64,000 nt of DNA from an uncultured virus (IMG/VR IMGVR_UViG_2684623068_000003) (taxonomy: Duplodnaviria > Heunggongvirae > Uroviricota > Caudoviricetes), in the IMG/VR virus record IMGVR_UViG_2684623068_000003; one strand, written 5' to 3'. Both the position numbers and the translations under genes were made by a program. The notes beneath the pieces were generated by a model, which saw nothing but the letters and a program-made list of their open reading frames with translations, searched no databases and was not told where the DNA came from. Within the stretch, counting starts at the first letter, position 1. Each line of letters opens with the position of its first letter. Shown here one piece after another: positions 19,664-52,404 of the stretch.

Positions 19664-19691
19664 CAGTCCGCTTTGAGCGAGGAGCGGAAGT
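19664..19691 (-). repeat. 28-bp cassette-boundary site, type A (spacer TCGCTC)
   Basis: Minus strand ACTTCCGCTCC-TCGCTC-AAAGCGGACTG; matches 51412-51439 of prophage 2. Confidence 0.85.
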
Positions 19692-19807
19692 TCGCTTTAA
19701 AGGGTAACTAATCCGCTTGTCTGACGATCTCTGAAACAGAGTGAGCCACTTTGCTATGATACTTACACATAGGCCTATGCTATTCATAAGCCTATGAAAA
19801 AAATTAG

Positions 19808-20683
19808 TCAAAAATCTAAATCTACCGCATGATTGGACGGTTGATGCAAATTTTCTGCAGGATGCAAGGAATTCATGTAATCAATTATCTCTTGATTTTG
19901 TAACAAGGCAGAATAAAATGCACTCTGCCAATCTTTTCCAATGTCTGGCTGTGGAATCTCTGATAAACGTTGCTTTAATGCTGTACTCACGTCAAATTTT
20001 GCATTGGCCAATCTTCTCTTCCATTGCCGGAATTCCTTTTTGCTATAATGAATAATTCGTGATTTAATTTTTAATTTTTCCGCATGAATAATCACTCGCC
20101 TTTGGTCATCAGCCTGAGTTTCTATAATTCTTTTTAACTTTACCACTACAGATATATCATTGCTTTCAGTATTTAATGAGACATTCATTGAGAAACGAAA
20201 ATTCTCCAGAAAATTGAAATAAATAGGATGTATAAACATAGCTAAGTTATTTTCATTGCAATAATAATGCTCGCCTTTTACTGGAGCACAGCCTCTACAC
20301 TGAGGTACTAGATTATTAGGGAAAATAGAAAATTCAGGCCATTTTCCTTTAGGGATAAAATGATCTAAAGTGTCAGGAATCATTGGATTTCCACAGTAAG
20401 GGCAAAAGGAAAGTTCGTGTTCATTCCTTCTTTTAAGTAATAATTTGTTTAATTCCTTTGGTGCTTTTTCATAATATTCAATTAATAGATCAGAATGCTG
20501 TAGGAATGCACTCTCAGGTAGCGCATCATTACTAGAATCTATCAGACTATCATATGAACTATAATTATCAGATAGTTCTTCAGCTATAAGTTTAAGTTGT
20601 TGAACATTTTCTTTTTTACTTCCTCTTGCCGCGTCAAGCCATGCGCAAGGCTGATTTTCCATGAGTTCGCCTAAGTATTTCAT
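19808..20683 (-). CDS. HNH endonuclease (PtuB-like)
   Basis: CPYCG..TLDHFIPK..NNLVPQCRGC; translationally coupled to upstream ATPase. Confidence 0.85.
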   Translation of the reverse strand: MKYLGELMENQPCAWLDAARGSKKENVQQLKLIAEELSDNYSSYDSLIDSSNDALPESAFLQHSDLLIEYYEKAPKELNKLLLKRRNEHELSFCPYCGNPMIPDTLDHFIPKGKWPEFSIFPNNLVPQCRGCAPVKGEHYYCNENNLAMFIHPIYFNFLENFRFSMNVSLNTESNDISVVVKLKRIIETQADDQRRVIIHAEKLKIKSRIIHYSKKEFRQWKRRLANAKFDVSTALKQRLSEIPQPDIGKDWQSAFYSALLQNQEIIDYMNSLHPAENLHQPSNHAVDLDF

Positions 20684-22329
20684 TATTCATCCTCAAAAGA
20701 CATCTTGTCATCATCTGATTTTGAAAGTGCATAAGCTAATGCATCATTGCCGATATACCCCTTAATTTCAGAAATAGATGAGCTATCGCGAATGAAATAT
20801 TTATCAATCTCTTTTTGATAAGGCTTGCTTACATATTCATCATCGAATACTTCCGAGACTATTACATCAATTGACTCCCCATATGTTTCAACTGAGGATC
20901 TAAATACTTTGGTGTTCCCTTCAATTTTTCGTAATATAGTTACTGCATCTCTTTCAACTTCACGTGTCAATATTGATGAATGAGTGGCAATTATAGAAAA
21001 AGATTTTGTTTCATCCAAAATGTTCTTGAGCATGTTTATCAAACCAACTTCAAGCTCAGGGTGTAAGTAAAGTTCAGGTTCATCGAGGATTAATAAACTT
21101 TCTTCTTCAAGCTCAGATATTATTGCCGGAATCATATATGTATAAATTTTCTGACCTGAGCTTAGAGGAATTATGGCACCGTTTTTTTTAAAGATTAATC
21201 CTTTTTTTAAATTTATGTTTTCTTTGATGCTATTGATTCTAGTTTTTTCGTTTATGCAAATTTCATCACCACCATTATCCAGTATCGATATTGAATCAAA
21301 GGCTATTGAAATGGATAATGTTTCTTTTAGAAGTTGAAATCTCGTTTTATCATTCCACCAACCGTTTTCTTCATCATAACTTAGTATTTTAATAATTGAT
21401 TCAACGCTTTTTAAAACTGGGTATTCCGGGTCAAAGATTCCATCCTGATTTCTAAACCCTATATAAGAGTATTCATTTACATGTAAACGCTTTCTTTTCA
21501 AGCTTTTTTTGTTAGCTAAAGAGCCTTCCCGTGAATATTTTACCGTTAGCTTGTTGAATATTTCATTTTCTGTATAGAAGTCTTCAAATGGTGAGTGCGC
21601 AATAACTATTAACTTGTGAAAATAAGGTGGGTGCTCTTCACCGTCTGTAACACCTGTTATAACTTCACTTATTCTCTTCAATATATGGGTTTTGCCAACA
21701 CCATTCTTTCCGATTATAAGACAGATATTTGACTTCCCAACCTTTCTGTCCATGTTGAATTTAAAACTAATAGGGTCAAAACTCTCACCGAGGCTTTCAA
21801 TGTTCAGCTCAAATTTAGTTTTAGGATTATATCTCCCCAGTGCTATTTGATATCCTTTTTTCAAAATTGCAGCAGAAGAACTTCCTCTCATTAAACTACC
21901 TGAATATCCACCCCATTCAGAGTATTCGCTTTGATTCCTTAGAAAATATCCAGCATCACATAAAGATTCTAGCAGGGCATCTATTTTCTCTGGTTGAAAT
22001 AGTGAGTTTATCTTTTTATAATAGTCTATATCTTCACCAATCGAAACCAACTTATTTTCAGACAGTACGCCATTAATATTAATAATTTTTAGCTCAATTT
22101 CTTCACCATGTTCTTTAAAGTAAAGTGATGTGTTTTCATTTACTTTGGAAAGCATTTTTATATTGCCAATTTTTATCTTATCAGTATCTCTTACATAATA
22201 TACTTTGAACGTAATGATATATCCGAAGTCATCCCATGGAACTCCATAGTTTGTTCCTATATGATCCTGAAGCAAATGAATTCCAGGATATTTATCAATC
22301 ATTAATGTTTCCGAGTAGTAATAATCCAT
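20683..22329 (-). CDS. ABC/AAA_21-type ATPase (PtuA-like)
   Basis: Walker A GKNGVGKT, signature LSSGQK, Walker B LLILDEPE-LHP, switch IATHS; N-terminal WDDFGY. Confidence 0.88.
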   Translation of the reverse strand: MDYYYSETLMIDKYPGIHLLQDHIGTNYGVPWDDFGYIITFKVYYVRDTDKIKIGNIKMLSKVNENTSLYFKEHGEEIELKIININGVLSENKLVSIGEDIDYYKKINSLFQPEKIDALLESLCDAGYFLRNQSEYSEWGGYSGSLMRGSSSAAILKKGYQIALGRYNPKTKFELNIESLGESFDPISFKFNMDRKVGKSNICLIIGKNGVGKTHILKRISEVITGVTDGEEHPPYFHKLIVIAHSPFEDFYTENEIFNKLTVKYSREGSLANKKSLKRKRLHVNEYSYIGFRNQDGIFDPEYPVLKSVESIIKILSYDEENGWWNDKTRFQLLKETLSISIAFDSISILDNGGDEICINEKTRINSIKENINLKKGLIFKKNGAIIPLSSGQKIYTYMIPAIISELEEESLLILDEPELYLHPELEVGLINMLKNILDETKSFSIIATHSSILTREVERDAVTILRKIEGNTKVFRSSVETYGESIDVIVSEVFDDEYVSKPYQKEIDKYFIRDSSSISEIKGYIGNDALAYALSKSDDDKMSFEDE

Positions 22330-22657
22330 TTTAATTCCTTTGAGTGACTAATTATCAAAAATACTCATGAGAATACATTCATTAAATTGTATACATTCTC
22401 TTAACATAGTATGAGTTTATAGCATCGTTTTTTGAAGCTTAATGCTTTGGTGATTTTCCAATAAAACATACAGCCCCAGATTAATAGATGACGTTAACAC
22501 TCTTAAAACAAAATTTACACTGCGAGGGGAAAATATAACAAAACATTACCATTATGTAAGCCCCTTAGCATAGGTTTATCAGTTTTTTACCACATAATCG
22601 AATAAATATGTGCGTTAGTGAACTATCCATAACTATCAACGCCAAGTGAGATTTACA

Positions 22658-22685
22658 ACGTCCGTTCCTGGCACTAAACAGTCCA
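22658..22685 (+). repeat. 28-bp cassette-boundary site, type B (spacer TGGCAC)
   Basis: ACGTCCGTTCC-TGGCAC-TAAACAGTCCA; matches 44585-44612 (minus) of prophage 2. Confidence 0.85.
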
Positions 22686-27651: not shown

Positions 27652-27657
27652 GCCTGT

Positions 27658-27675
27658 TGTTTCACCGCCGCCACA
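27658..27675 (+). promoter_or_regulatory. Ogr-binding site of late promoter pF
   Basis: TGT-N12-ACA (TGTTTCACCGCCGCCACA) upstream of FI. Confidence 0.75.
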
Positions 27676-27747
27676 AGCCCTATTCCTAGTGAGTTCAGCA
27701 TCTAAACAACACAATAGCCTTGCAACTTTCTCACGGAGTCAAACACG

Positions 27748-28935
27748 ATGCCCGATTTTAAACATGGCGTGCAGGTGCTCGAAATTAACGACGGCACCCG
27801 CGTCATTTCCACCGTTTCAACCGCCATTATTGGCATGGTCTGCACCGCCTCGGATGCAGATGAAAAAATGTTCCCGCTCAATGTGCCGGTGCTGATTACC
27901 GACGTGGTGGCCGCTACCGGTAAAGCCGGAACGAAAGGCACCTTAGCCCCCGCGCTGGCAGCCATCGGCGACCAGTGCAAACCCGTTACCGTCGTGGTGC
28001 GCGTGGCCGAGGGCGAAGGTGATGACGAAGAAGCGATCCAAGCGGCGACCGTTTCCAACATCATCGGCGACGCGGATGAGAACGGCCAATACACCGGCCT
28101 AAAAGCGTTGCTTACCGCGAAAGCCGTCACCGGCGTCAAGCCTCGCATTTTGGGCGTGCCGGGTCTCGATACTAAAGAGGTGGCTGTCGCACTGGCGGCA
28201 GTCTGTCAGCAACTGCGCGCCTTTGGCTATATCAGCGCGTGGGGCTGTAAAACCCTGTCGGATGCGATTAAGTACCGCGACAATTTCAGCCAGCGCGAGC
28301 TGATGCTGATTTGGCCGGACTTCTTGGCATGGAATACCACCACCAACGCCAGCGGCACCGCGTGGGCGACCGCGCGCGCATTAGGTCTGCGCGCCAAGAT
28401 TGACCAAGAGACCGGCTGGCATAAAACCCTGTCCAACGTCGGCGTGAACGGCGTCACAGGAATCAGTGCCTCGGTATTTTGGGATTTACAGGCACCGGGC
28501 ACCGATGCCGACTTACTCAACGAAGCCGGTATTACCACGCTGGTGCGCTCCGATGGTTTCCGCTTTTGGGGCAACCGCTGTTGCTCTGATGACCCGCTGT
28601 TTATGTTTGAGAACTACACCCGCACCGCGCAGGTGCTGGCCGATACCATGGCCGAGGCGCATCAATGGGCGGTAGATAAACCAATGACCGCCACGCTTAT
28701 TCGCGACATTGTCGAGGGTATCAAGGCCAAATTCCGCGAGCTGAAAACTAACGGTTACATCATCGATGCGGATTGCTGGTATGACGAAAGCGCCAACGAT
28801 AAAGAGAGCCTGAAAGCGGGCAAACTCTATATCGATTACGACTACACGCCAGTGCCGCCGCTGGAAAACCTCACCTTACGCCAACGCATCACCGATAAAT
28901 ATCTGGTGAGCTTAGGCTCAACCGCCAACAGCTAA
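27748..28935 (+). CDS. FI: Tail sheath FI
   Basis: [30 protein letters not shown]. Confidence 0.96.
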
Positions 28936-35250: not shown

Positions 35251-36414
35251 ATGATTAAACATCATGTGGCGAAAAAAATTGTATTAGCAGTGGCATTGGG
35301 TTGTGCTTCTTTCTCCTCGCTCGCAGAAATCACGCTGTTAGAGCAAGATCCGCAGGCTGGCGATCCACTTAGCCGCTTGAAGTTTCAGGTTGGGGGTAGT
35401 ATTCGTCCACAGTTCATTGATGAAATGGGCAACAGCGATAAAGGCTCTTATAAACGCAACGGTTATGACGGCGGAACGCGTTTTCGTTTCTCTGCTGATT
35501 ATTACCTGTTCGATGATGTTAGCCTGATTGGTTACTACGAATTAGGTGTGAATGTCCCAGCGCTGTTTAACTGGGATAATCACTATGCAGATGGCGCAGC
35601 AAACACCGATCGCCGTATGCTGTTCGGAGGTTTGAAAAGTGCAACGTGGGGTACTCTAACCTACGGTAAGCAAAATAGTATCTACTACACCGTTGTTGGC
35701 GCGAAAACGGATATCTGGGACTTCGATATGCAGGCTCAGGCTCCAGGTAACGGTTATAACGGCAACTATGATGGCTCATACCGCAGCTACAATCTGGTCC
35801 AATATAAAAATACCTTTGGCCCCGTTGATCTGTATGTGGGCGGTGTTTTACATGATGACTCCCACCCTGCTGGCGTAAATAACGGCAACCCACTGCGTTA
35901 TCAACGTAAAGGCGGCGGTGCATTGGGTGTGGATTACCACATCACCGATGAGCTAACTTGGGGTACTGCGTACAGCTATATCCAACAAAGCATCAAACAA
36001 AATAACGGTGCAGATAGTGGCAAAAATGATAATGGCCAACAGTTGCTGGGTTCTGGTTTAAGCTGGAAGCCTGACAATTGGACTCTGGCAGCATCTGCCG
36101 GTTGGTATCGTAATTTCTTAATGACCGGTGTTAAAAACCGTCATGATTACTTTGCTGGAAATGGCTACGGCGTTGAATATTATGCGGGTTATACTTTCCC
36201 TATCAGCCAATATCTGGTGAAAAATATTACACCTTATTATGCTGGTGACCGCCTGAAATTTAACACTGGTCGTGATTATCAGAGCAACCATCAGACGCTG
36301 GGTATTTCCACCAAGTTTGATTATGGCTTCCAGATCGACGTCGAACATGTATTCACAAATACCACAGACAATAAAAGTGACCTGAATCTAGTTCGCCTGC
36401 GTTACGACTTCTAA
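35251..36414 (+). CDS. Outer-membrane porin (Gram-negative porin family)
   Basis: Signal peptide, beta-strand pattern, WGTLTYGKQ, C-terminal LRYDF. Confidence 0.85.
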   Translation: MIKHHVAKKIVLAVALGCASFSSLAEITLLEQDPQAGDPLSRLKFQVGGSIRPQFIDEMGNSDKGSYKRNGYDGGTRFRFSADYYLFDDVSLIGYYELGVNVPALFNWDNHYADGAANTDRRMLFGGLKSATWGTLTYGKQNSIYYTVVGAKTDIWDFDMQAQAPGNGYNGNYDGSYRSYNLVQYKNTFGPVDLYVGGVLHDDSHPAGVNNGNPLRYQRKGGGALGVDYHITDELTWGTAYSYIQQSIKQNNGADSGKNDNGQQLLGSGLSWKPDNWTLAASAGWYRNFLMTGVKNRHDYFAGNGYGVEYYAGYTFPISQYLVKNITPYYAGDRLKFNTGRDYQSNHQTLGISTKFDYGFQIDVEHVFTNTTDNKSDLNLVRLRYDF

Positions 36415-36436
36415 GTTAAATCAATTTAATTACTCA

Positions 36437-36466
36437 AGCACCTAAACCCTATTTAGGTGCTTTTTT
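36437..36466. terminator. Terminator after porin
   Basis: AAGCACCTAAA-CCCTA-TTTAGGTGCTT then T run. Confidence 0.8.
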
Positions 36467-36487
36467 AAACAAAATCCTAATCTAATC

Positions 36488-36955
36488 TCACATCTTATCA
36501 AGATTATTTGCCGCGTTATTAAACGCCTTCGCTAGAGAGGCATCAGTCCCTTTCAACGTAATTGAATTCATATAAGCCAGCCATTTTGTATGTAGATCAT
36601 TAAGCGCAGCTAACTGGGCAGAATCTGCCGTCACGCTTTGGACCCGGCTAACCTGAGGCTGTACGATATCTATGGATGCTTGACGTATTTCACTGCTACA
36701 GGACTCAATTTTCGCTTTCTCAATGGAATCTGTAGTTTGCTGTGCCCACTGTGCCGCCACGACATTTTTACGTTCCGCATCGACACCCAGCTTGCGCATG
36801 TTCACTAGCAGATCTGACGTAGACTCGATTATAGGATAGTGACTTGCCGCTGGGATATCGCAGGAGAAATAGCTCTTAAATGGCGATTGCCCCTCGCTGC
36901 TTGCACACCCTGCCAATAATAGCGAACTCAAACATAGGGTAAGAATCTTTTTCAT
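36488..36955 (-). CDS. Hypothetical lipoprotein
   Basis: MKKILTLCLSSLLLAGC lipobox; GAGGT SD. Confidence 0.85.
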   Translation of the reverse strand: MKKILTLCLSSLLLAGCASSEGQSPFKSYFSCDIPAASHYPIIESTSDLLVNMRKLGVDAERKNVVAAQWAQQTTDSIEKAKIESCSSEIRQASIDIVQPQVSRVQSVTADSAQLAALNDLHTKWLAYMNSITLKGTDASLAKAFNNAANNLDKM

Positions 36956-37108
36956 CCGATAGACCTCGTTATTTTTTGTTGTTCGATAATAGCAAGACAA
37001 CGAGATAACGCATATCGACGAGAGATAAAATGGCATTTCATGGATAACATGTGGCGTAAAAAAAGCCGCATAAGCGGCTTATAAACGCAATACTAACCGA
37101 CAACCCAA

Positions 37109-37546
37109 TTATTTTTGTGGAATAATGAGCATCTGCCCTGGATAGATTTTATCTGGATGCGACAGCATCGGTTTATTGGCTTCAAAAATGCGCATGTAGT
37201 CATTGGCGTTGCCATAATGTGCTTTGGCAATCGCACTCAGTGTATCACCTGCTTTAACCGTATAAAAATGACTCTCAACACCAGATTGCGCAGCCGCAAG
37301 CTGATCGTCTACTTTGCTAATGCCTGCGACGTTACCAATCGCAACCAAGATCTTCTCTTTCAGTTCCTGACTCACTCCCTCGCCTGACACCGTGGCAGTA
37401 CCATCATCAGCAACTTTAACGTCGACCTTATCTGCTCCTGGTAAACCAAGCTTATTGATATGCTCTTTGAGTTTATCATCACGGTTTCCACTCACCGCAT
37501 CCCAAAGCTTTTCTCCCGCATCTTTAACGAAACTTAGCAAACCCAT
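37109..37546 (-). CDS. kbp: BON+LysM potassium-binding protein Kbp (YgaU)
   Basis: [49 protein letters not shown]. Confidence 0.93.
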
Positions 37547-42511: not shown

Positions 42512-42964
42512 CAGTGTTTCCGCTTCGTTGTAGCGCTTTGTCGCGCCAGAGGGCGAGCTCGGTCAGGCTCATGGGGTTAAGTTCTGAGGGCGGCCAGTGA
42601 AATATCACTGCGATATCCGCCATCAGGTCATCGACCGATAAGTCGGTGGGAAAGTCTATTGAGCCGAATTCGGCGACAAAAAACCGATCACCTTACCGGC
42701 GAGCGCAATCATGTCGGGCAGTTCCAACTTGACCACGTCGCTCTCCAACAATGGCGGGTAGGTCATACGCGGCAGCACTTTAATCAGCGCATCAACGTCA
42801 GAATTTGCCACCGCCGCCAGACTCACGCCGCGCAGGGTTCCCGCATTGGGTTTGGTGAGGGTCACCTGCTCGATAAGCAGTTCGCCACGCTTAATTGGGT
42901 TTTCCAGCGTTACCACGTTGTCATTTTCAGGGGTGACGTGCTCAGTGATGTTTTTATCTTTCAT
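42501..42964 (-). CDS. E: gpE (42656-42964) and -1 frameshift product gpE+E'
   Basis: Slippery TTTTTTG at 42677-42683 (minus). Confidence 0.9.
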
Positions 42965-43024
42965 AATCGTTCTCTTTAAACAAGGGGATTAACCGGCCAG
43001 TGTTGCACCTGACCGGCCATTGCA

Positions 43025-43064
43025 TTACAGACCGATGTTTTTACGGTGCTGCGCTAAGCGGTCA
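43025..43064 (-). pseudogene. FII: 3' remnant of tail tube FII
   Basis: Encodes DRLAQHRKNIGL-stop, matching the FII C-terminus of prophage 1. Confidence 0.88.
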
Positions 43065-43527
43065 CCCGACCATCAGCACTGCGGCCATGGAATTGATACG
43101 CGCCGACTGAACCGGCCACGCTTAATCCCTCAAAGGCTTGCTGAATACGCACCCGAAAATCGTTGTCGGACTCCAGCACGGCGGCCAGAGGGGGAATAGC
43201 GGTGGTATCGGCGGGCGTAATGACCAGACGTTCAACGTTATAGTTCGAGCCGAGGTTATCCAGATCGCCGCCGGTGGCATAGGCCAGCATGTTCGCGCGG
43301 GCGGCTTCATTCACCCGCTGACGCCACATCACCTCGCGATAAGCGTTTTCTTCGAGCAACTTGGTCAAGGGTTCGGATTCGAGCTGCAAGGTACGCGCCA
43401 CCGCTTCGCGCTGGCTCTCGTCACACAGAGACAACAGCGCCGCCTTGCGCTCGGCTAAAATACTTTCGTAGTCCAGCACCTCGACCACATCGGGCGCGGG
43501 AAGCTGACTCAGGTCAATGGTTGCCAT
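43054..43527 (-). pseudogene. J: Truncated gpJ (N-terminal ~155 aa)
   Basis: Matches gpJ up to HGRSADGRV, then joins the FII remnant. Confidence 0.92.
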
Positions 43528-43530
43528 GGA

Positions 43531-43878
43531 TTAACTCACAGGTACGTTAAGGGAGAAGGTGCCGCCGGTATCGGTCAGGGTGCCGGTGATATCGACCACC
43601 ATCTCGCCGTTAAACCGGTTATCGAACGTGATGGCCGTGAGCCTAACGCGGGGCTCCCACTTTAAAATCGCCATGTAACAGGCGGCCATAATTTGTAGGT
43701 TGAGCGCGGCGTTCTGCGGTTGGTCAATCAGGGCAGATAGGAGCGAACCATACTCACGACGCATGACCCGCGTGCCGACCGGCGTGATTAGAATATCGCG
43801 CACGCTTTGGCGAATATGGGCGAGGTCATCAAGCTGCTGGCCGTCGTCTCGGCTCATGCCTGAATAACGCGCCGTCAT
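43531..43878 (-). CDS. W: Baseplate protein gpW
   Basis: Near-identical to 23392-23739. Confidence 0.95.
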   Translation of the reverse strand: MTARYSGMSRDDGQQLDDLAHIRQSVRDILITPVGTRVMRREYGSLLSALIDQPQNAALNLQIMAACYMAILKWEPRVRLTAITFDNRFNGEMVVDITGTLTDTGGTFSLNVPVS

Positions 43879-44513
43879 TTCGTTCCCTCCGTCCATTCAC
43901 CGCCGCCTTTAACGCCGCCATGCCCATGTTTATCAACCTGTACGCCGTTCGAGGTGAATTTGCCGGTGTGTTCTATGGTGCCGCTCATCGTGCCGCCTTT
44001 TTGCACCTCGATAGAGCCGGTGGTTAGCTTGTTGGTGCAAATCACTTCGGGGGTATCGAGGGTGATTTTTTCGCTGGCGGTCACGGTGACGGACGGGCAA
44101 GTCACCACCACCGACGCCGAGGCGGTCACATCCGCGCTTTTTATACCGCTCACACTAAGCGCGCCGGTATCGGGCTCGTACTCGATGACCGCGCCGTCAG
44201 GAAACTCGACGCGCCAACCATCGGCAGACGCCGACGGGGCGGGAAAGTCATCACAATAAATGCCGGTCAGGACAAAGGCGGTATCAAGCTCGCCGCCGAC
44301 GGCCAGCAATAACACCTGCTCCCCCACCGACGGAGCCCACCAGTCACGCGAACGGCCAGCGCGACGCGCCAGCCAGTTAATCCAACCGGTTTGTATTTCG
44401 CCGGTTTGGACGCGGCACAGGGCTCCATCGGTATCGACTTCGGACACGACACCGGTGCGGATAAGGTTGCGCAGTAGACGCGAGATTTCGGATAGTTGGG
44501 ATTGTGTGCTCAT
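43875..44513 (-). CDS. V: Baseplate spike gpV
   Basis: Near-identical to 22757-23395. Confidence 0.95.
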   Translation of the reverse strand: MSTQSQLSEISRLLRNLIRTGVVSEVDTDGALCRVQTGEIQTGWINWLARRAGRSRDWWAPSVGEQVLLLAVGGELDTAFVLTGIYCDDFPAPSASADGWRVEFPDGAVIEYEPDTGALSVSGIKSADVTASASVVVTCPSVTVTASEKITLDTPEVICTNKLTTGSIEVQKGGTMSGTIEHTGKFTSNGVQVDKHGHGGVKGGGEWTEGTK

Positions 44514-44584: not shown

Positions 44585-44612
44585 TAGACTGTTTAGTGCC
44601 AGAAGCGGACAT
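44585..44612 (-). repeat. 28-bp site, type B
   Basis: ATGTCCGCTTC-TGGCAC-TAAACAGTCTA. Confidence 0.85.
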
Positions 44613-44721
44613 ATCTTCAGATATTCTTATGGTGAAAAAACACAGCCATCAATTATTGTTCAATATCAATAATCAAAGCATGTTAGAGTTTCATTCGTAA
44701 GGAAAATCTCATCAGAAAAAT

Positions 44722-44749
44722 GCTTTATCACAGTGCCAAAAGTGGATAA
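44722..44749 (-). repeat. Degenerate type B site
   Basis: TTATCCACTTT-TGGCAC-TGTGATAAAGC; shares GTGCCAAAAGTGG with 46216-46228. Confidence 0.45.
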
Positions 44750-44830
44750 TCTATCACCTATTCATCTAGAGTTCGTTAGGTTTCGTTATCATTCGATTCA
44801 ATGTTCTTATACAAGGAATAGTTAGTCTCT

Positions 44831-46105
44831 ATGAGTGTCATAAAAGATTTTTTAGAACAATATAGCAAGCAGTATGATTACTATTCTGAGTTGGCAAAAA
44901 TTGGCTCAAACTTGCTCGAGCAGGAATTGGAGAAGAGAGGGATTAAAGCCATAGTTTCATTCAGAGCTAAGCGACCAGACCGCTTAGAACAAAAACTTAA
45001 TCAAAGAAATGAAAAGTCAGCATATGCAGATGTTGCTAATATATATGAAGATATCGTCGACCTGGCCGGTGTTCGAGTAGCTTTATATTTTCCAAAAGAT
45101 AGAGAAGTAGTTGATGAAACTATTAATTTTTTATTTAACGTCCGAAAAAAGAAAAACTTTCCAGAAGCATCTTATAAACCTAAGTTTGAAAAAAGATTTT
45201 CTGGTTACTGGGCATCTCATTATCGTGTCAATTTGAAAAACTCTAACCAAAATAAGAAGCGTTACGAAAGTGCATTATTTGAGATTCAAGTAGCATCGGT
45301 TCTTATGCATGCCTGGTCGGAAGTCGAACATGACCTTGTTTACAAACCTCTAGCAGGCGATTTGTCTGAAGAGGAACTTGCAATCCTGGATGAGATTAAT
45401 GGATTAGTGCTTACTGGCGAAATAGCTCTTGAAAGACTTCAAAAAGCCATAACAAAAAGAACTAAAGAAAAAGATAATATTTCAAATAGATATGAATTAA
45501 CGAGTTTTATAACCAACTCACTTAATAAGAATTATATAAACAAACTTAAATTAGGTGATACTAAAATTTTATTTAATTATCTCAAAGATAATTCTAGCAT
45601 AAGCGTCAGTGAACTTTCTGAATATTTGCGTAAAATTAATCAAAGTGAAAAAGAAACAATCACAGATCAATTGCTTCTTATGATTATTAATGATTCATAC
45701 AAGAGCGTTGGAAGTAATTTAAATCTTTCAAATTATTTCAAACATGCTCTTGGGGAACATAAGGATGTATCAGGGTTTGAGTCATTTGTTAAAACATGGA
45801 TTTTACTAGAAAAAGCAGTGTCTTTAATTCACAATCAAAACAATCGCCAGCACAAAAAATTCTTCACCGCAAAATTTGAGCCATTGGTTTCTGACGGAGT
45901 GCTGACGCAGGAAGAGTCAATTGAACTAAACTATTTTAAAAGAATTAGAAATAACTTACTTCATGGTATAGAAACACCTAACGATAAAGATCTAAACGAA
46001 ATGTTCGTTAGGTTGTTAGCATTAACTGAGAAGATTATCTCATCTATTAAAAATGATGATGATAAAGCTAAATTGCTCAAAGAAATAAAGACATTGAGTG
46101 ATTAA
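44831..46105 (+). CDS. RelA/SpoT (small alarmone synthetase-type) domain fused to a C-terminal HEPN-like domain
   Basis: RAK, DLAGVRV, GYWASHY, EIQVASVLMHAWSEVEHDLVYK; C-terminal FVKTWILLEK..RIRNNLLHG (RX4H). Confidence 0.85.
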   Translation: MSVIKDFLEQYSKQYDYYSELAKIGSNLLEQELEKRGIKAIVSFRAKRPDRLEQKLNQRNEKSAYADVANIYEDIVDLAGVRVALYFPKDREVVDETINFLFNVRKKKNFPEASYKPKFEKRFSGYWASHYRVNLKNSNQNKKRYESALFEIQVASVLMHAWSEVEHDLVYKPLAGDLSEEELAILDEINGLVLTGEIALERLQKAITKRTKEKDNISNRYELTSFITNSLNKNYINKLKLGDTKILFNYLKDNSSISVSELSEYLRKINQSEKETITDQLLLMIINDSYKSVGSNLNLSNYFKHALGEHKDVSGFESFVKTWILLEKAVSLIHNQNNRQHKKFFTAKFEPLVSDGVLTQEESIELNYFKRIRNNLLHGIETPNDKDLNEMFVRLLALTEKIISSIKNDDDKAKLLKEIKTLSD

Positions 46106-46178
46106 AATATGAGATAAAAATCATGGTCATAGGCTAATTATTGTTTTGTATTCAGAGCCTGAATCTAAGCAGAATGAT

Positions 46179-46232
46179 ATGTCCGCTCCTCGCTCAAAGC
46201 AGCCCACTCCGCTTCGTGCCAAAAGTGGCAGT
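46179..46232. repeat. Back-to-back type A (46179-46206, +) and type B (46205-46232, -) sites
   Basis: ATGTCCGCTCC-TCGCTC-AAAGCAGCCCA / ACTGCCACTTT-TGGCAC-GAAGCGGAGTG. Confidence 0.85.
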
Positions 46233-46329
46233 AGCTAATAGTCGATTGCGTGGAACAACTGAAACCAAATCAAATAGCCGCTATTGACACATGATGCAAA
46301 TACCCCGCAAGAGCGGGGTTTGAACGAAA

Positions 46330-46713
46330 CTACAATTTTTTAATCAGATTCTCAATATTGGCTGGTTCAAAGTAATGCGGATTAACTTCACCATTTATGA
46401 GGAAACCATCTTTAAGTAGGTCTTCAAGTTCACTCTCTACCTCTTTGTCGAAGATACCTGGATATATTCTCTTGTATGCCTGAAAGGTACCTTTCATCTT
46501 CCTGCAAGCATTTTCCGCGATTTCGAATGAGATCTCGTTTCCTGCATTAAAGGCCGGTATGAAGATCTCAAGAATATCGTTCTTTAGCTTCTGCTTAAGT
46601 TTCTTCTTTTCAACGATATTTGAGTAACAGATACCTAAAAAGAAGGTGAAGATACCAGGAACCCAATTGTTAACGAAAACTTCAAGAATCCCTTTAATAG
46701 ACAAAGTGTCCAC
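46330..46713 (-). CDS. Hypothetical protein with N-terminal TM helix
   Basis: 127 aa; GTG start with AGGAG SD; hairpin ACCCCGC-AAGA-GCGGGGT downstream (46302-46319). Confidence 0.7.
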   Translation of the reverse strand: MDTLSIKGILEVFVNNWVPGIFTFFLGICYSNIVEKKKLKQKLKNDILEIFIPAFNAGNEISFEIAENACRKMKGTFQAYKRIYPGIFDKEVESELEDLLKDGFLINGEVNPHYFEPANIENLIKKL

Positions 46714-46928
46714 TATCTTACTCCTGAATTAAGATTGAGGTTCATAAAGTACAAACCCAGTACAAGTCGGGTATTAAACTGCAGGTCGAATACGTTATTT
46801 ATTATACAGCGTTCATGTGAAAGTGCTTCACCTTTGGTGGCAAATTGCATGCGAATCCGTTTGCCGCTTGCCCTAAATAGATAACACTCGCTAAACCACT
46901 TTCCTGATAGGTGCTTACGAACGATCAT
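46713..46928 (-). pseudogene. 5' remnant of a P2-family integrase
   Basis: MIVRKHLSGKWFSECY..GKRIRMQFATKGEALSHE aligns by eye to the N-terminus of int at 1-1056. Confidence 0.85.
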
Positions 46929-47169
46929 TCTGTTTAGGCTTCATGAGTAAATCCCGGATTTTCGCAAGGTTTGAATTTTCGGGGGCTGAATCCATGTATG
47001 GATCGCGCTCAAACACTAATTGCTCAGACTCAACAAAAGCATGCCACTCTACTGGGTCTAGCTCAAATTCCATCGCCGACATATCACTTTCATCTTCCCC
47101 CTTGATCCAGCGGACTAAATAAAACAATTCATCATCAGGATGACTCATCATCGTCATCAACAATATCAA
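46915..47169 (-). CDS. Hypothetical acidic protein, probably 5'-truncated
   Basis: 84-aa ORF overlapping the int remnant start; weak start. Confidence 0.4.
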   Translation of the reverse strand: MILLMTMMSHPDDELFYLVRWIKGEDESDMSAMEFELDPVEWHAFVESEQLVFERDPYMDSAPENSNLAKIRDLLMKPKQNDRS

Positions 47170-47385
47170 CGTCGGTTACAGTGATGCGAAGGGTGGGATC
47201 GATTTTTGAGACATAAATCCCTAACTGCGGCATTGTTGTTCATGAGAATTCCTTTTATTAGTGTTTGCTATTCGAATAAAAATACGCCAAACAGTGTGCT
47301 TACTGTGAATACGGCAAGAATCGTTATAAGTATCCCGCTTAGACGCCCCATTCTCTTTCTGAGGGAGTATGTTACCTGAAAACGA

Positions 47386-47450
47386 ACTTCTGTTCCTCGC
47401 TCAAAGCAAACCCAATGACCACGTAACCGTTGCGTGCCAGAAGCCGACTT
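47386..47450. repeat. Back-to-back type A (47386-47413, +) and type B (47423-47450, -) sites
   Basis: ACTTCTGTTCC-TCGCTC-AAAGCAAACCC / AAGTCGGCTTC-TGGCAC-GCAACGGTTAC. Confidence 0.82.
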
Positions 47451-47536
47451 TTGGTAGTTGTCAGTAGGATGGTATTTGAGCAGAATGAGACAGCCTTAAA
47501 GGATGTTCGTTTTTTATACAACAACACAAGGTCTGA

Positions 47537-48061
47537 ATGGGGCTGCTGGCCCACAAAAGAAAGGATGTACGAGATCGAGCTATGCGTATTCATCAGCAGA
47601 ATAAGTCCCGTAAACTATATCGCAGCGTCAACACGACGACGCGGCACCATTCTAATAATCCGGGTGCTGAGTATCGGTGGGAACGAAATCGCAAAAAAGT
47701 CGGAGATGAGCTACTGGTAAAGCGCGAGACAATGCATAGCAGACAGAAGCGTGGCCGAGACTACACACCATTGTTTTATTTTCTGATCAAAGAGATTGGC
47801 AAGCCGTGGAATGAAATATTCAGCGAAGTATGTGGACGTCTTGATACCACCGAGCCGGTATTCTGGTTGGTCGCGCTACATGAGCATCAGCGAAGGGGTC
47901 TAGTCTGCATTGGTGAAAGCAGTTTTTACCCAGGTCTGTTTGTTGATGAGAATGGAATTCTGCAACAGGTAAACCTTTCAATCACAAGAGATGACGTTAA
48001 GGTGACATGTCGTTGCTGCACACACACTTATATTGGTGAACCTGTACCTTGGATAGATTGA
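47537..48061 (+). CDS. Hypothetical basic protein with C-terminal CRCCTH motif (start may be 47582)
   Basis: 174-aa ORF filling the interval between two site pairs; DYTPLF, PVFWLV, GLFVDENG. Confidence 0.7.
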   Translation: MGLLAHKRKDVRDRAMRIHQQNKSRKLYRSVNTTTRHHSNNPGAEYRWERNRKKVGDELLVKRETMHSRQKRGRDYTPLFYFLIKEIGKPWNEIFSEVCGRLDTTEPVFWLVALHEHQRRGLVCIGESSFYPGLFVDENGILQQVNLSITRDDVKVTCRCCTHTYIGEPVPWID

Positions 48062-48119
48062 GTGACACCACCTATCTTATCTTGGATGCGATCATTGTCA
48101 GCAGTAAGAGTGCTTGCAA

Positions 48120-48180
48120 ACATCCGTTACTCACTTACTCCGGGCAGTTAGCCCTTCCGCAATGTGCCAGGAACGGACAT
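48120..48180. repeat. Degenerate type A (48120-48147, +) and type B (48153-48180, -) sites
   Basis: ACATCCGTTAC-TCACTT-ACTCCGGGCAG / ATGTCCGTTCC-TGGCAC-ATTGCGGAAGG. Confidence 0.75.
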
Positions 48181-48230
48181 TGTCGGTAAAATGGAGTATG
48201 AGTGTCGTTGAATGCTTTTATAATGTGGCT

Positions 48231-49145
48231 CTAGTGCTTTTCAAGTATTTCATACGAGAACTCCACATGTGGATGAACATACTCTGCTGAATTAATCTCA
48301 CGTTGCACATTATCAATTGTTACAACGCAGAGAACCCCATTGGTGTTTAGTAGGACAGCCTTTTGCCCTACAGCCGGAGTAACAGAACGACCTGGAGTTA
48401 AGAAAGAATTGACAGTCAAGGGATCAAAATCTGCAACTGTAATCAACCCGACGGCTTTGAGTCCACCATCTATATAGAGGTAAACACTACTGTCTGAGTG
48501 TGCACTAAATGCTATTTTAAACTGATATTCACTGTTACCAATCGTATAGTGGGCATTGTCTTTGAAGCGAAAAATCTCGCGTCCCTTGAGTGCTGGATTC
48601 GCATAATGCGAAGGAGCACGAAGAATATCAATATGTTCAAGCCTTGCAATACGTTGACGATAAACCGATAATGGAGTCGTATGCTTTTTATCTGTTGGCA
48701 GTCCTTCAATCCAACGCCAAATAGCATCGATCTGTATAGAGCCAGGAAATTCATTTCTATCAGGATTAGAATTAAAGTCAAAGCCCTTAGGATTATGCCC
48801 CTCAAGCCAATTAGGTAGTTTTCGCTCAGGATTTCGAACAAAGATAACCGACAACCATGTCGAGTGCTTTGTCATAAAAGCTTCACTTATCCATTTGTTT
48901 TCGATACCAACCCCTGAATTCGGTTTGTTATTAGCTCGTTGGACATAGTTATCGTCGACAATCAACAGTACATGATCGGTTTCGATAACCTCTCGCATGA
49001 AACCAGATAAGCTTGAACCATATTTTACAGATTCATCGATTTTAACCGTATAGCCAATAAGGTCGAGATGGCTTGCAATTAGTCGAACCCATTCCCTATG
49101 GACATCTGAAGTCCAAGCGTATGAAATAAATAAATCGGTTTTCAT
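48231..49145 (-). CDS. TIR (TIR_2/SEFIR-like) domain protein with beta-rich C-terminal domain
   Basis: LFISYAW..HREWV..ID..G.SL..FM..VLLIVDDNY..GVGIE (putative catalytic Glu). Confidence 0.88.
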   Translation of the reverse strand: MKTDLFISYAWTSDVHREWVRLIASHLDLIGYTVKIDESVKYGSSLSGFMREVIETDHVLLIVDDNYVQRANNKPNSGVGIENKWISEAFMTKHSTWLSVIFVRNPERKLPNWLEGHNPKGFDFNSNPDRNEFPGSIQIDAIWRWIEGLPTDKKHTTPLSVYRQRIARLEHIDILRAPSHYANPALKGREIFRFKDNAHYTIGNSEYQFKIAFSAHSDSSVYLYIDGGLKAVGLITVADFDPLTVNSFLTPGRSVTPAVGQKAVLLNTNGVLCVVTIDNVQREINSAEYVHPHVEFSYEILEKH

Positions 49146-49289
49146 TCATTAAGCCCAGCTTAAGTTGTGTGATAAGATAATTGTCTATCCCGAATGCTCG
49201 TTTGACAAATTTTTTTAAACTCCCCCTGAGATAGAAAAACCTTACTTGAGTTATCGGTATAAAGCAACCGCACAGAGGTCTCCAACTCA

Positions 49290-49317
49290 TCGTCCGCCCT
49301 TCGCTCAGAGCTGCCTT
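49290..49317 (+). repeat. Type A site
   Basis: TCGTCCGCCCT-TCGCTC-AGAGCTGCCTT. Confidence 0.75.
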
Positions 49318-49349
49318 TCATGCCTGCTTATAAAATAGGCTTAGCGTAG

Positions 49350-49644
49350 GATAGTTAGGGGCACGACGACTACGATTTATCCGCGTATCCACACCGCCTT
49401 CATCGGCCAGTTCGCGGTAACCATAGAACGAATCACGTGAAATTCCCATGATTTTACAGGCTTTTGATACATTGCTGAGTTCTTCAGCCAAATTGAGTAA
49501 ACCGGCTTTGTGTTTGATAATGCGATTGGTAGTATGAAGCATGAGAGTTACCTTGTGTTTTGTGTAAGGATTCGACACTCATATCAAAACCGGTAATCCT
49601 CAACCTTTCAAGGCCATGTGTCAGATCAAGTCGCGACTGATACA
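49350..49644 (-). mobile_element. IS481-family remnant (left end plus truncated transposase)
   Basis: End TGTATCAGTCGCGACTTGATCTGACA (49619-49644); MLHTTNRIIKHKAGLLNLAEELSNVSKACKIMGISRDSFY. Confidence 0.85.
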
Positions 49645-49672
49645 GGTAATGTGTCCACCACGCTAAATTTGA

Positions 49673-50416
49673 TTAACTCTCAAGAGTATCAAGGCCTTCT
49701 ACGTAATTTTTTTTCAAATCTTCTATAAGCTTGGGTAGTTTTCTGATTATGCTTTCATCCCTATAAAAATCGGTATGTTCAGCCTGTGTCAGAAAATCTA
49801 TAATATCAGTTCGAGTGTGAATCCCTTTATTTTCATCATAGCAGTCCACAAAGGCTTTAATCCCATAAAAAAGGTCTACTCGTCGTTCCTGTAAGGTTTT
49901 ATTCTTGCTCAACAATAGTTCATTTTCTTTCTGTAGCTCTAAATTTTCTTGCTCTAAGTTATTGGCTTTCTTGGTTTTATCCGCTATAGATGCTCTTAAT
50001 TTTTGGTACTCATTTTCCACCTCAAGGTCAGCCATCCCATCTTCGCGCCTGATTTTTGCAAACCACTTCGAGGTGAATTTGGAAACATTATAAGTTACAA
50101 ATGGGGCACCTAGAGAGACTATTAATCCTGTAACAAGAGGCAATCCAAAATGTGCAGACCATGGTGATAAAAAGAAATCGCCAATGAAGGGAAGACAGAA
50201 ACTCTGACCAGTGAAAATCATAGACAGGGTGTAATAAATATCCTCTTTGGTCTTGATTAAAATAATTATTTCTTGCCAATTTAGGACAAAAAATGAAACT
50301 AAGACGTAGAAGTATATTTTATTAAATAATTTAGTTCTTAATTCGCCATGTAATGTTCCCAATACACTTGGCTTATCAAGCTTATCCTCACTGTTATTTG
50401 CACTTTCCACACTCAT
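49673..50416 (-). CDS. Hypothetical membrane protein with coiled coil
   Basis: 247 aa; hydrophobic N-half, LEQENLELQKENELL heptads; AT-rich. Confidence 0.75.
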   Translation of the reverse strand: MSVESANNSEDKLDKPSVLGTLHGELRTKLFNKIYFYVLVSFFVLNWQEIIILIKTKEDIYYTLSMIFTGQSFCLPFIGDFFLSPWSAHFGLPLVTGLIVSLGAPFVTYNVSKFTSKWFAKIRREDGMADLEVENEYQKLRASIADKTKKANNLEQENLELQKENELLLSKNKTLQERRVDLFYGIKAFVDCYDENKGIHTRTDIIDFLTQAEHTDFYRDESIIRKLPKLIEDLKKNYVEGLDTLES

Positions 50417-50502
50417 AGCCCTTTATATACTCAGTTTATATTAATCCATTAACGAATAGCACCGCTGCAAACAACCGGTGCTATTCAACATAATTTAATT
50501 TT

Positions 50503-50922
50503 TTATAAAAACAATTCTGGTTTCACACCAAAACGAGCCGACAGTGCCTTAATGTGAGTAATGGTCAAAGAGCGCTGGCCAGACAGAATCTGGCTAACCA
50601 GTGATTTAGAGCCGATCTCCTCTTTGAGATCAGAGTAAGACAGCTTGTGCTGGTCAATCAGGGTACGCAGCAGTGCAACGCCGACCGGCATTTCAGCGTT
50701 AGCTTTGTTGAATTCAGCGAAACGAGGGCTATTATCTTCATAGTCGGCAATCTTACTCACCAAAAAGTCAATAAGCGGGTTCTCGTCGTCGTTCTCGATC
50801 AAGTAGTCCACCAGCTCCAACGCTTCGCGGTAATCGCTCTCGGACGAACTGCCCCCTAGGAAGGGGACAGCAGCTATGAGTTGTTTGGTTGCTTCAATGG
50901 CTTTTGCGGTGTCGGTAATCAT
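50503..50922 (-). CDS. higA: HigA antitoxin (HTH)
   Basis: LLRTLIDQHKLSYSDLKEEIGSKSLVSQILSGQRSLT..LSARF. Confidence 0.92.
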   Translation of the reverse strand: MITDTAKAIEATKQLIAAVPFLGGSSSESDYREALELVDYLIENDDENPLIDFLVSKIADYEDNSPRFAEFNKANAEMPVGVALLRTLIDQHKLSYSDLKEEIGSKSLVSQILSGQRSLTITHIKALSARFGVKPELFL

Positions 50923-51230
50923 TCTTTGTTCTCCCTGTAATAGCGGGTCAACTTGTCGTAATCAGCGTGGGTTGCGATGTGCTTCACATAGAAGCGCTTA
51001 TTCATGAAATTGATATAGACAATAACCCTCAAGTTGTTGCCTCCTACATTTAAAACCCACCACTTGTTCCGGTACTTGAAATTATCCATGCTCGGTATCA
51101 GAGTTGGCATCTCAGTTGGAGAAGAGAAATCCGTCTCGCGCACTAAGCGGTACAGTGCCCGAATGGCTAACGAATCGTTGGGATATCGCTTTGCCGCTTC
51201 CTCAAAAGGCTCTTTTGAAATTACGTGCAT
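50919..51230 (-). CDS. higB: HigB toxin (RelE-like mRNase)
   Basis: MHVISKEPF..WWVLNVGGNNLR..FYVKHIATHADYD; toxin-first order. Confidence 0.92.
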   Translation of the reverse strand: MHVISKEPFEEAAKRYPNDSLAIRALYRLVRETDFSSPTEMPTLIPSMDNFKYRNKWWVLNVGGNNLRVIVYINFMNKRFYVKHIATHADYDKLTRYYRENKE

Positions 51231-51411
51231 TTTGCGGCCATTCTATCCGTTTACATTATATGAACATGATAGTGCCACCCTTTACCGTTTGCAATATGTA
51301 AACGGTGACTTTTCATTTCATAACCTCGGAAAAATCCCTACTTAACCTGAACCGAGTGGACCTTGAGGGCATGATCTGCTCCCTGTTGATTCACACTGAA
51401 TGCTGTTAGCA

Positions 51412-51439
51412 ATGTCCGCTCCTCGCTCAAAGCGGACTG
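51412..51439 (+). repeat. Type A site (S-proximal)
   Basis: ATGTCCGCTCC-TCGCTC-AAAGCGGACTG, internal dyad GTCCGCT/AGCGGAC. Confidence 0.88.
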
Positions 51440-51492: not shown

Positions 51493-52404
51493 TCACCCGC
51501 TAAGAAATGCGGTGACGACATCCTCAACGATATGCTTATCCGATGCACTAAACCCTAATAGCGGGCGTGCATCATACTTCACCTCACGGCTAAAGCGGTT
51601 CGGCTTATCGCTTAAGCCCTCTTGATGTATCCGCGCCATACGCTGAACACGCCCGACAAACTCGACCACGGCGGCATCGCTTGAGCCTTGCGCTTTCATA
51701 AAGCGATTGGTGCGCAGCTTCGCAAACATCTGGCGCTTTACGCGGCCTCGTTTGCCGCTGGTTGGTTGTGGCTTTCGGCTGGCGTAGGGTGTGCCGTCGG
51801 GCGCTTTCTGTTGCTTAATGTGCTGTTGCTGACTGGTGCGCAAGCGCTTCGCCACTTTCACCGCAATTTTGCGGCGCTGCACCGGCGTTAGGTTGCCAAT
51901 CAGCCCCGCGAGCCTGTCCTCAAACTGTTTGAGCTCACTCATATCCCACTGACTCACTAGCTCGCCGTTGATATAGAGCTCCATGGGGCGCTCAACCGGC
52001 TGCGGGATTTGTGGCTCGTTAAGGTGCTTCACATGAAGCGCCCTATCCACCTGTTTGACGATAACGCGCTCGGTGAGGCGCAGACTAAAACTGACATCGA
52101 TACTTTCGTGATTATTCAGGTCAGCAAAGTAAGTGAAGCCGTTCCGTTTGCCCTCATCAGTGGTCATGATATCCGGCTGGTTTTCGCGGAGCCATGCGTT
52201 AATCGGCACAATGAGCAAATCCAGATCGCCAGAATAATCGGTTATGGTCACATTGAGCGTGTACAGATTTTCATGCGATAGCGTCGCGGCTAGCGTGGTC
52301 GCAATCGTCCCGTTATCTACAAACAGGCGCAGCATATCGGGATTTTTACGCAGCACCGGCGCGGCTTTCTCAAGCGCTTCGCGCAGACTTTTGGGCTTTA
52401 ACAT
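51493..52404 (-). CDS. In-frame gpR-gpS fusion
   Basis: 303 aa = R (..ELVSQWD) + S (MSELKQF..); TGGGATATGAGT versus TGGGATGAATGA in prophage 1. Confidence 0.88.
   Translation of the reverse strand: MLKPKSLREALEKAAPVLRKNPDMLRLFVDNGTIATTLAATLSHENLYTLNVTITDYSGDLDLLIVPINAWLRENQPDIMTTDEGKRNGFTYFADLNNHESIDVSFSLRLTERVIVKQVDRALHVKHLNEPQIPQPVERPMELYINGELVSQWDMSELKQFEDRLAGLIGNLTPVQRRKIAVKVAKRLRTSQQQHIKQQKAPDGTPYASRKPQPTSGKRGRVKRQMFAKLRTNRFMKAQGSSDAAVVEFVGRVQRMARIHQEGLSDKPNRFSREVKYDARPLLGFSASDKHIVEDVVTAFLSG

Follow-up and report, generated by a model that had tools for sequence, protein, structure and literature searches.

Two types of 24-bp site delimit a cassette array in a P2-like prophage and may be the substrates of a small tyrosine recombinase

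Integrons, pdif modules, shufflons and the variable hotspots of P2-like phages are the closest described systems to the gene array considered here, which occupies positions 44585 to 51439 of a 64,000-nucleotide (nt) stretch of DNA from an uncultured virus (IMG/VR IMGVR_UViG_2684623068_000003). The whole stretch is referred to as the window. It consists of two P2-like prophages in opposite orientation, prophage 1 on the + strand and prophage 2 on the − strand, and the array fills the gap between the O and V late operons (gpS/gpV) of prophage 2. Its modules are delimited by sites of two types, A and B. The array is probably a stack of mobile cassettes moved in trans by site-specific recombination, A by A and B by B, and the candidate enzyme is a tyrosine recombinase of about 200 amino acids (aa) that lies between such sites in other genomes.

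The likeness to integrons is seen in the tandem arrangement of small accessory-gene cassettes, in the conserved imperfect palindromes and in the associated tyrosine recombinase, and it extends to the cargo, with GNAT, glyoxalase, toxin–antitoxin and defence genes. The array differs from an integron in that its genes point either way and the recombinase gene is found inside the array, between A and B, rather than at one end beside attI; the ~200-aa recombinase scores 15.3-16.2 bits on the NCBIfam integron-integrase models, the cut-offs of which are 265 and 435. The sites here are defined by their sequence and have two core types, without the structural conservation by which attC is recognized. 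The attC end motif GTTRRRY was not noted in the A/B site consensus.

As in pdif modules, A and B alternate in inverted orientation, most arrays are without a recombinase, and the modules would, as proposed here, be moved in trans. The dif-like sites of pdif/Xer modules have an 11-6-11 arrangement, whereas the sites of this array have 7-bp (base pair) arms around a 10-bp centre (7-10-7), and the recombinase belongs to another subfamily, with 30-52 bits on XerC/XerD models against cut-offs of ~330. A preliminary description of the locus had named it 'integron/pdif-like'. With the integron-integrase and Xer models far below their cut-offs and sites that are not attC-like, that name can be kept as an analogy only; the proposed recombinase-driven cassette platform would work like an integron or pdif modules and belongs to neither group.

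The sfx core of the R64/IncI shufflon is GTGCCAA in the available text of PMC4176322, that is, the B core GTGCCA followed by an adenine, which is the form found in 32% of B sites. Further shared features are the asymmetry of the core and the weaker conservation of one arm. The right arms are unlike, the shufflon recombinase Rci (384 aa) is unrelated beyond the catalytic motifs, and sfx sites are described in that text as giving inversion only (PMC4176322), whereas 375 of 393 neighbouring sites are direct here. An Rci-type identity of the ~200-aa recombinase was also considered and rejected, BLASTP against the 384-aa pEK204 integrase beside the shufflon giving E 0.9.

Surveys of thousands of P2-like prophages report, in the portions of text available, that hotspot defence genes are swapped faster than core genes diverge, and both leave the mechanism open (PMC13586616, PMC9122126). 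In the same portions, the discussion of PMC13586616 states that recombination processes 'still need to be elucidated' and the text holds none of the terms 'inverted repeat', 'hairpin' and 'terminator', while PMC9122126 speculates on cos ends. The array shares with these hotspots a variable cargo between conserved late-operon genes, gpV and gpR/S flanking it; it differs in that the texts, as far as available, treat the hotspots (Z/fun, tin/old and the orf30 slot) and not A/B sites or an enzyme. Literature searches, covering available parts of PMC13586616, PMC9122126 and bioRxiv 10.1101/2024.10.15.618418, found no description of the A/B sites or the enzyme. The preliminary description had pointed to Z/fun as the locus, but the array lies in the S/V gap, between gpV and gpR-gpS, in the slot occupied by orf30 in phage P2. 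P2 itself has flanking sites at fun(Z), a B with 1 mismatch and an A with 4. The title of a 2004 paper by Nilsson et al. (Mol Biol Evol 21:1) reportedly names site-specific recombination in P2-like coliphages, and the Z/fun sites may already be in print there.

The array and its two types of site

The array and the backbone genes on either side consist of the following features, open reading frame being abbreviated as ORF.

43875..44513, − strand: gpV baseplate spike, backbone to the left of the array (Pfam Phage_base_V, Phage_spike)
44587..44610, + strand: B1, the V-side docking site; outer 5' arm degenerate (GACTGTTTA), then core GTGCCA
44831..46105, + strand: module 1, 424-aa RelA/SpoT-type nucleotidyltransferase (Pfam RelA_SpoT, E 1.5e-13; PADLOC PDC-S33, E 9e-9)
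46181..46204, + strand: A1 (pattern and 24-nt scan)
46207..46230, + strand: B2 (pattern and 24-nt scan)
46330..47169, − strand: module 2, three small ORFs (127, 71 and 84 aa), no Pfam match
47388..47411, + strand: A2 (5 mismatches)
47425..47448, + strand: B3 (pattern and 24-nt scan)
47537..48061, + strand: module 3, 174-aa protein, no family match
48120..48147, + strand: A3, placed as in the preliminary description; degenerate, missed by the 24-nt scan
48155..48178, + strand: B4 (24-nt scan); its 5' half stays with module 3 in four public runs
48231..49145, − strand: module 4, 304-aa TIR/SEFIR protein of the bSEFIR defence type (PADLOC bSEFIR, E 3.8e-43; Pfam TIR_2)
49292..49315, + strand: A4 (pattern and 24-nt scan)
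49318..49578, − strand: HTH_29 fragment, 86 aa, remnant of an IS481-type transposase (Pfam HTH_29)
49673..51230, − strand: last module, with a 247-aa protein without match, a 139-aa HTH_3 antitoxin-like protein and a 103-aa HigB toxin-like protein
51414..51437, + strand: A5, the S-side docking site (0 mismatches); backbone constant from TCGCTCA on
51493..52404, − strand: fused gpR-gpS tail-completion ORF, 303 aa, backbone to the right of the array (Pfam P2_Phage_GpR, Phage_tail_S)

Scanning the 64 kb with the A core pattern TCCGCNYYTCGCTCARAGC and up to 2 mismatches gives 5 matches (46182, 47389, 49293 and 51415 on the + strand, 19670 on the − strand) against 0.06 expected. The B pattern GTGCCARAAGYGGMCAT, with up to 3 mismatches, gives 9 against 1.11 expected, including the four B sites already listed in the preliminary description (44596, 46216, 47434 and 48164) and one at 22658 on the − strand. 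None of 100 shuffles reached 5 for A, and none of 100 reached 9 for B. A stricter 24-nt scan with up to 5 mismatches recovers eight of the nine sites that had been listed, and their order and common orientation match the earlier account; A(48120) is degenerate and was missed. The paired sites said to delimit the array are real, with counts above those of shuffles, and each is 24 bp long. The last module is indeed without a B site, the HTH_29 fragment occupying the place of the fifth. The 3' arm of B1 belongs to module 1. The linker between A1 and B2 (46197-46200) is 8 nt shorter than the A-linker upstream of module 2 in contigs from public runs and in the E. coli arrays L001 and L003, so that A1 is left without a proper 3' arm.

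Alignment of 57 A-B junctions from other loci gives the structure of both sites. A is GTCCGCT-yy-TCGCTCA-n-AGCGGAC with core TCGCTCA, and B is GTCCGCT-yy-GTGCCA-rr-AGCGGAC with core GTGCCA. Inverted 7-bp arms (GTCCGCT / AGCGGAC) with 10 bp between them are thus common to the two sites, which differ in their asymmetric cores, A being similar to the reverse complement of B. A complete junction consists of A, a conserved linker of ~20 nt and B, at nearly fixed spacing. Regular expressions that required exact matches at the 5' arm and core were used for a site logo, which is biased at those positions, and for the comparison of sites by flank given below. Two cores predominate in 893 arm-pair matches, TCGCTC (157, with 128 in reverse) and GTGCCA (120, with 104 in reverse), any other core occurring at most 3 times. 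Neither TCGCCA nor GTGCTC, which would be hybrid or empty cores, occurs among these matches; TGGCTC and GAGCCA, each one substitution from a normal core, occur twice each.

The frequency of Watson-Crick pairing between the arms equals that of shuffled columns for all 7 arm pairs in both site sets; the sets are mixed, since A and B cross-match in reverse complement, and the pairing statistics hold. In the window, neither B1 nor the A1-B2 junction surpasses shuffled sequence in folding. A5 does, against each of 200 shuffles (z -3.9), and one canonical junction has -17.9 kcal/mol against -11.5 kcal/mol for shuffles (z -2.66). The lack of arm covariation, together with the behaviour of B1 and A1-B2, points to protein half-sites in duplex DNA rather than a folded strand. 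Rfam gives no gathering-score match in the window, and the sites have no match at E up to 5.

The cargo is much as first described, Pfam, PADLOC and the translations bearing out the assignments. Module 1 carries a C-terminal R-x4-H motif, seen as RIRNNLLHG in the translation, which suggests a HEPN-like C-terminus. The HigB-like toxin of the last module matches Pfam HigB_toxin at E 1.7e-22, has an HTH_3 partner and is PADLOC PD-Lambda-2 A/B-like. An 'int remnant' had been placed in module 2; neither Pfam nor tblastn gives a match there, and the E. coli homologue of its last ORF is named DUF8087 in RefSeq. The array had also been said to hold no intact recombinase, in agreement with Pfam on the array ORFs tested and with tblastn using the ~200-aa recombinase, both of which find none.

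Recurrence, exchange boundaries and a candidate recombinase

The A pattern is present in at least 125 stretches of viral contigs, and the complete A-B junction in at least 128 stretches when one genome per species is searched. Among the 80 junction matches listed, nearly all are Enterobacterales by title (Pantoea, Erwinia, Rahnella, Rouxiella, Yersinia, Serratia, Citrobacter, Klebsiella, Enterobacter, Salmonella and Pectobacterium), the exceptions being one Pseudidiomarina metagenome-assembled genome and one such genome labelled only Gammaproteobacteria; plasmids account for 2 of the 80. The recurrent grammar is B, cargo, A, a linker of ~20 bp and B again. The 464 sites counted in 71 genome loci form 393 neighbouring pairs; both members are on the same strand in 375, and there are 154 steps from B to A (median 1398 bp) and 148 from A to B (median 42 bp). 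Five whole genomes have 4-17 A sites each, clustered and mostly co-oriented within a cluster. In P2-like viral contigs, sites are also found just upstream of FI (the Z/fun slot) and adjoining Q (the tin/old slot). None of the genome loci L130-L209 has a tblastn match to the 12 P2 proteins searched, and their cargo consists of ordinary accessory genes: GNAT, glyoxalase, NUDIX, ASCH, LysR with MFS, AraC, SDR and LysE. Cargo is thus not confined to defence genes, chromosomal arrays also holding GNAT, glyoxalase, LysR/MFS, AraC and SDR genes.

Cassettes are shared between arrays and keep their sites. E. coli T16R (L002) carries module 1 by itself, between a B and an A site of its own, and the DNA that follows it there is not the recombinase module. 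Module 2 is present in many E. coli genomes, and modules 2 and 3 together in a chromosomal array without P2 genes. The array of E. coli CFT073 and a P2-like viral contig have in common a 1037-bp cassette (99.1% identity) that terminates in A cores on either side; in the contig its neighbour is gpQ. Among 69 extracted cassettes only nine similar pairs occur, mostly duplicates of one contig. The right-hand 441 bp of module 2 (46866-47298) recur alone, at 92% identity, in a longer and different cassette of a viral contig (L012:8001-9975), which indicates that cassettes can be mosaics below the level of the A/B sites.

The order of the cassettes also varies. In contigs from all four public runs (four coded organisms, four studies) modules 2 and 3 are directly followed by module 1. 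In each, the joint runs from 48163 to 44596, the 7 letters GTGCCAG being common to both sides. The final base of the A core, 46196, is also the end of module 1, and the recombinase leader comes next in two of the runs. No run covers more than 37% of the sampled array words, uncovered stretches being uninformative. The order 2-3-1 is a circular permutation of the 1-2-3 of the window. Window B1 is made of a phage outer half and the inner half of module 1, and B4 of the module 3 side and another inner half, so that B1 and B4 are the two reciprocal B junctions.

A second instance of the docking slot is found in prophage 1.

19161-19610: gpS of prophage 1 (Pfam)
19666..22683, − strand: A site, PDC-M01 pair and B site in the gpS-gpV gap
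19666-19689, − strand: A site (24-nt scan)
19808-22329, − strand: cargo, PDC-M01 B and A gene pair
22660-22683, − strand: B site (24-nt scan)
22757-23395: gpV of prophage 1 (Pfam)

Together with three further phages (L258-L260), the two prophages of the window share one S/V backbone with five different cargoes. On the V side the backbone is identical in all five through GTGCCA, and on the S side from TCGCTCA on, while the inner arms vary with the cargo; at the V side the phage has only ~7-16 bp in common with incoming cassettes. The position of exchange was examined further with per-position identity profiles of site pairs that share one flank only. For A, 77 pairs share the right flank and 9 the left; for B, 20 share the right flank and 67 the left. 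In both site types the dinucleotide to the left of the core tracks the left flank and that to the right tracks the right flank. As the dinucleotides segregate with their own flank, the crossover is placed inside the 6-7 bp core.

When all ORFs of the 71 genome loci were clustered, a tyrosine recombinase of ~200 aa emerged as the most recurrent family besides generic LysR, SDR and dehydrogenase proteins, being present in 9 of the 71. Alignment of eight loci shows that its module starts exactly at the A core and ends at the B core, 21 bp past the stop codon. The arm upstream of the module differs from locus to locus, and nine different cargoes follow its B site. Lying between the A and B cores, the gene sits at the place of the 20-nt linker in ordinary junctions. 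In CFT073 the array reads B, hypothetical gene, A, int, B, ETEC_3214, A, hypothetical gene, A-B, siderophore receptor and ABC transporter, A-B, and the E. coli array L001 holds a frameshifted copy of the recombinase. Of 5426 complete E. coli genomes, 912 carry the module, 42 of its locations being on plasmids, and plasmid records give 97 module matches at ≥80% identity. Homologues of 76-97% identity are found in Proteus, Providencia, Pantoea, Erwinia, Sodalis, Idiomarina, Cycloclasticus and Pseudoalteromonas, under generic names only. The recombinase is absent from the window by tblastn, and no close copy was found in the phage collection. Scans of five array-bearing genomes with PF00589 and PF01797 gave no consistently adjacent integrase.

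The protein matches Pfam Phage_integrase (PF00589) with 67.3 and 68.9 bits against a cut-off of 27.1, over residues 37-186 of 202. It reaches no NCBIfam cut-off, the general Phage_integrase model being the only one matched, and has no sequence match among solved structures. In 20 homologues with 76-93% identity there is no variation at R51, K79, H148, R151, H174 and Y183, and the order of these residues suggests that they are the catalytic ones. A predicted structure was not used, its mean predicted local distance difference test score being 45. The leader of the gene (L167:11097-11135) contains a 15-bp inverted repeat (CATACTCAAATCTCC ... GGAGATTTGAGTATG) that spans the ribosome-binding site and start codon, and its RNA hairpin is predicted at -23.9 kcal/mol. 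Some insertion sequences block translation from read-through transcripts by such hairpins, which this leader resembles.

The preliminary description had proposed a tandem gene-capture platform served by a tyrosine recombinase in trans, and had suggested looking for the same cassettes in new neighbourhoods, for variable cassette order and for a co-occurring recombinase. All three computational checks were passed: modules 1, 2 and 2+3 occur elsewhere with their sites kept, 2+3 precedes 1 across a joint at the B core, and a recombinase lies exactly between A core and B core. The proposal is thus supported, and the movement itself is what we infer from these patterns.

Proposed mechanism and competing explanations

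In the proposed mechanism, the ~200-aa tyrosine recombinase, not encoded in the window, would be supplied from a chromosome or plasmid and would exchange strands inside the cores. The two sites would be heterospecific, each recombining with its own type. A circle of one or more cassettes would be released wherever a site type is directly repeated, and the circle could re-enter at any like site. A B-by-B event combined with an A-by-A event would swap the DNA that a resident B and A enclose, the phage retaining only the outer half of one B and of one A as its docking sites. The order of the window (1, 2, 3 and the TIR cassette) could have arisen from a 2-3-1 circle, formed by A-by-A recombination in a recombinase-bearing array, followed by B-by-B entry into the phage. 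Such a mechanism would give constant outer half-sites despite changing cargo, arrays as intermediates and a permuted order in the window.

Other explanations can be given for the same arrangement. The mobile unit may be the recombinase module itself, together with an 85-bp miniature without int (A, 20 nt, B), inserting into a palindromic target GTCCGCTyy|rrAGCGGAC; cassettes would be caught between copies and move as a by-product, as in composite units or those flanked by miniature inverted-repeat transposable elements. As A resembles the reverse complement of B the module would have inverted ends, the int gene is at the linker position, the cores mark the limits of the module in E. coli (query 28-733 for most matches listed from the 912 genomes), and the leader hairpin hiding the ribosome-binding site recalls insertion sequences. 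Yet neither an unoccupied palindromic target nor a hybrid core is among the 893 arm-pair matches, the 20-nt linker keeps its spacing and is conserved together with A and B as a unit, and it is the cargo, not the linker, that differs between otherwise identical phage backbones. This explanation is unlikely, if the least unlikely of the alternatives. Also unlikely, and placed after it, is an exchange with no dedicated enzyme, the palindromes acting as terminator-like insulators and the swaps being made by homologous or microhomology-mediated recombination, as has been proposed for the promoter/stem-loop cassettes of T4-type phages. The many arrays without an intact recombinase fit such a process, as does the canonical junction that can fold (z -2.66), and the 2026 survey of P2 hotspots, in its available text, names homologous and illegitimate recombination as open options (PMC13586616). 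However, the boundaries fall inside a 6-7 bp core despite equally conserved arms, only ~7-16 bp are common at the phage V side, the same 7-bp joint is found in four of four runs, and there are only two core types, with a recombinase gene embedded between the sites.

Two further possibilities concern other enzymes. Each site is an inverted repeat with a possible 7-bp stem, A5 folds well (z -3.9 against 200 shuffles), the boundaries fall in what would be the loops and P2-like phages encode gpA; it could therefore be imagined that folded single-stranded hairpins are cut by an integron-like pathway or by an HUH enzyme such as gpA during rolling-circle replication. The arms lack compensatory covariation, however, shuffled sequence folds as well as B1 and the A1-B2 junction, three of the five array-bearing genomes have no Y1 transposase, and arrays occur in chromosomes and plasmids with no nearby match to the 12 P2 proteins (0 of L130-L209), making this route very improbable. 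The least probable of all is that the host XerC/XerD recombines the sites, as in the pdif modules of Acinetobacter plasmids. XerC/D-type genes are the best PF00589 matches and are present in all five genomes searched, and the sites are of ~24-28 bp and alternate in orientation; their symmetrical arms are presumably unlike the dif consensus, though, and a different, dedicated recombinase lies between them.

Several observations weigh against movement of the cassettes by the ~200-aa recombinase, or limit how far it can be taken. The recombinase is full length in only four of the nine genome-locus copies, and five whole array-bearing genomes that were searched contain no intact copy, with remnants in two of the five; many arrays may thus be fossils. 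It is position alone that links the candidate enzyme to the sites. None of the 893 arm-pair matches represents an excised circle, an empty site or a hybrid core. The pairs that share one flank fall into 16-19 flank groups per class and are not independent, and the loci were gathered with exact site patterns, so that the conservation of the sites is partly forced. The public-run sequences are contigs, not reads, and there is an 8-nt difference between the A1-B2 linker and the simple product that the sampled donors would predict. Neither an A nor a B site is present in the S-orf30-V gap of P2 or in the empty G/FI gap of prophage 1, so the first entry of a cassette into a naive phage would need another route. 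With these points taken into account, A-by-A and B-by-B recombination in trans is still considered the probable explanation.

The two prophages and the meaning of the array

The two prophages differ in several respects outside the cassettes. In prophage 2, gpR and gpS form one 303-aa ORF, whereas in prophage 1 and P2 they are two overlapping genes. A shortened gpFII-like ORF of 157 aa (43054-43527), named by its place and by comparison with prophage 1, lies directly next to gpW (43531-43896), which is followed by gpV (region 42656-44513), and J, I, H, G and FI, found at 23743-28935 in prophage 1, are missing. Given these missing genes prophage 2 is probably defective, which may account for its tolerance of a 6.9-kb array. 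In prophage 1 the G/FI (Z/fun) gap (27611-27747) has no cargo and consists of a GC-rich inverted repeat and a T-run, terminator-like in arrangement, before the start of FI. The tin/old slot of prophage 1 (gpA-gpQ) holds at 8358-10838 on the + strand a gene for an 826-aa protein in which an Eco57I-type methylase region is fused to BsuBI/PstI restriction-endonuclease domains, and no A/B sites were found around it. In prophage 2 the same slot (gpQ-gpA) holds a 577-aa ORF without Pfam match (60731-62464, − strand). The region between the prophages (35251-37546) contains an ORF with an autotransporter beta domain (387 aa) and a BON-LysM ORF (145 aa).

The finding offers a concrete and testable mechanism, with two defined 24-bp sites and a candidate enzyme. 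If it is true, cassettes or stretches of array would hop, as circles or in one-step exchanges, among chromosomal arrays, plasmids and the hotspots of P2-like phages, which would tie the phage hotspots to the chromosomal and plasmid arrays and would give Enterobacterales a cassette platform besides integrons. A small recombinase with two sites that do not cross-react would also be a natural tool for cassette exchange. A wider reading is tentative: it is quite possible, although we would not call it probable, that ~200-aa recombinases and two heterospecific 24-bp duplex sites form a counterpart of the integron, a shared docking standard of Enterobacterales and some marine Gammaproteobacteria on which the fast turnover of defence genes in P2-like phages is based. 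It would then be the hitherto unexplained mechanism behind the very fast exchange of defence genes in these phages.

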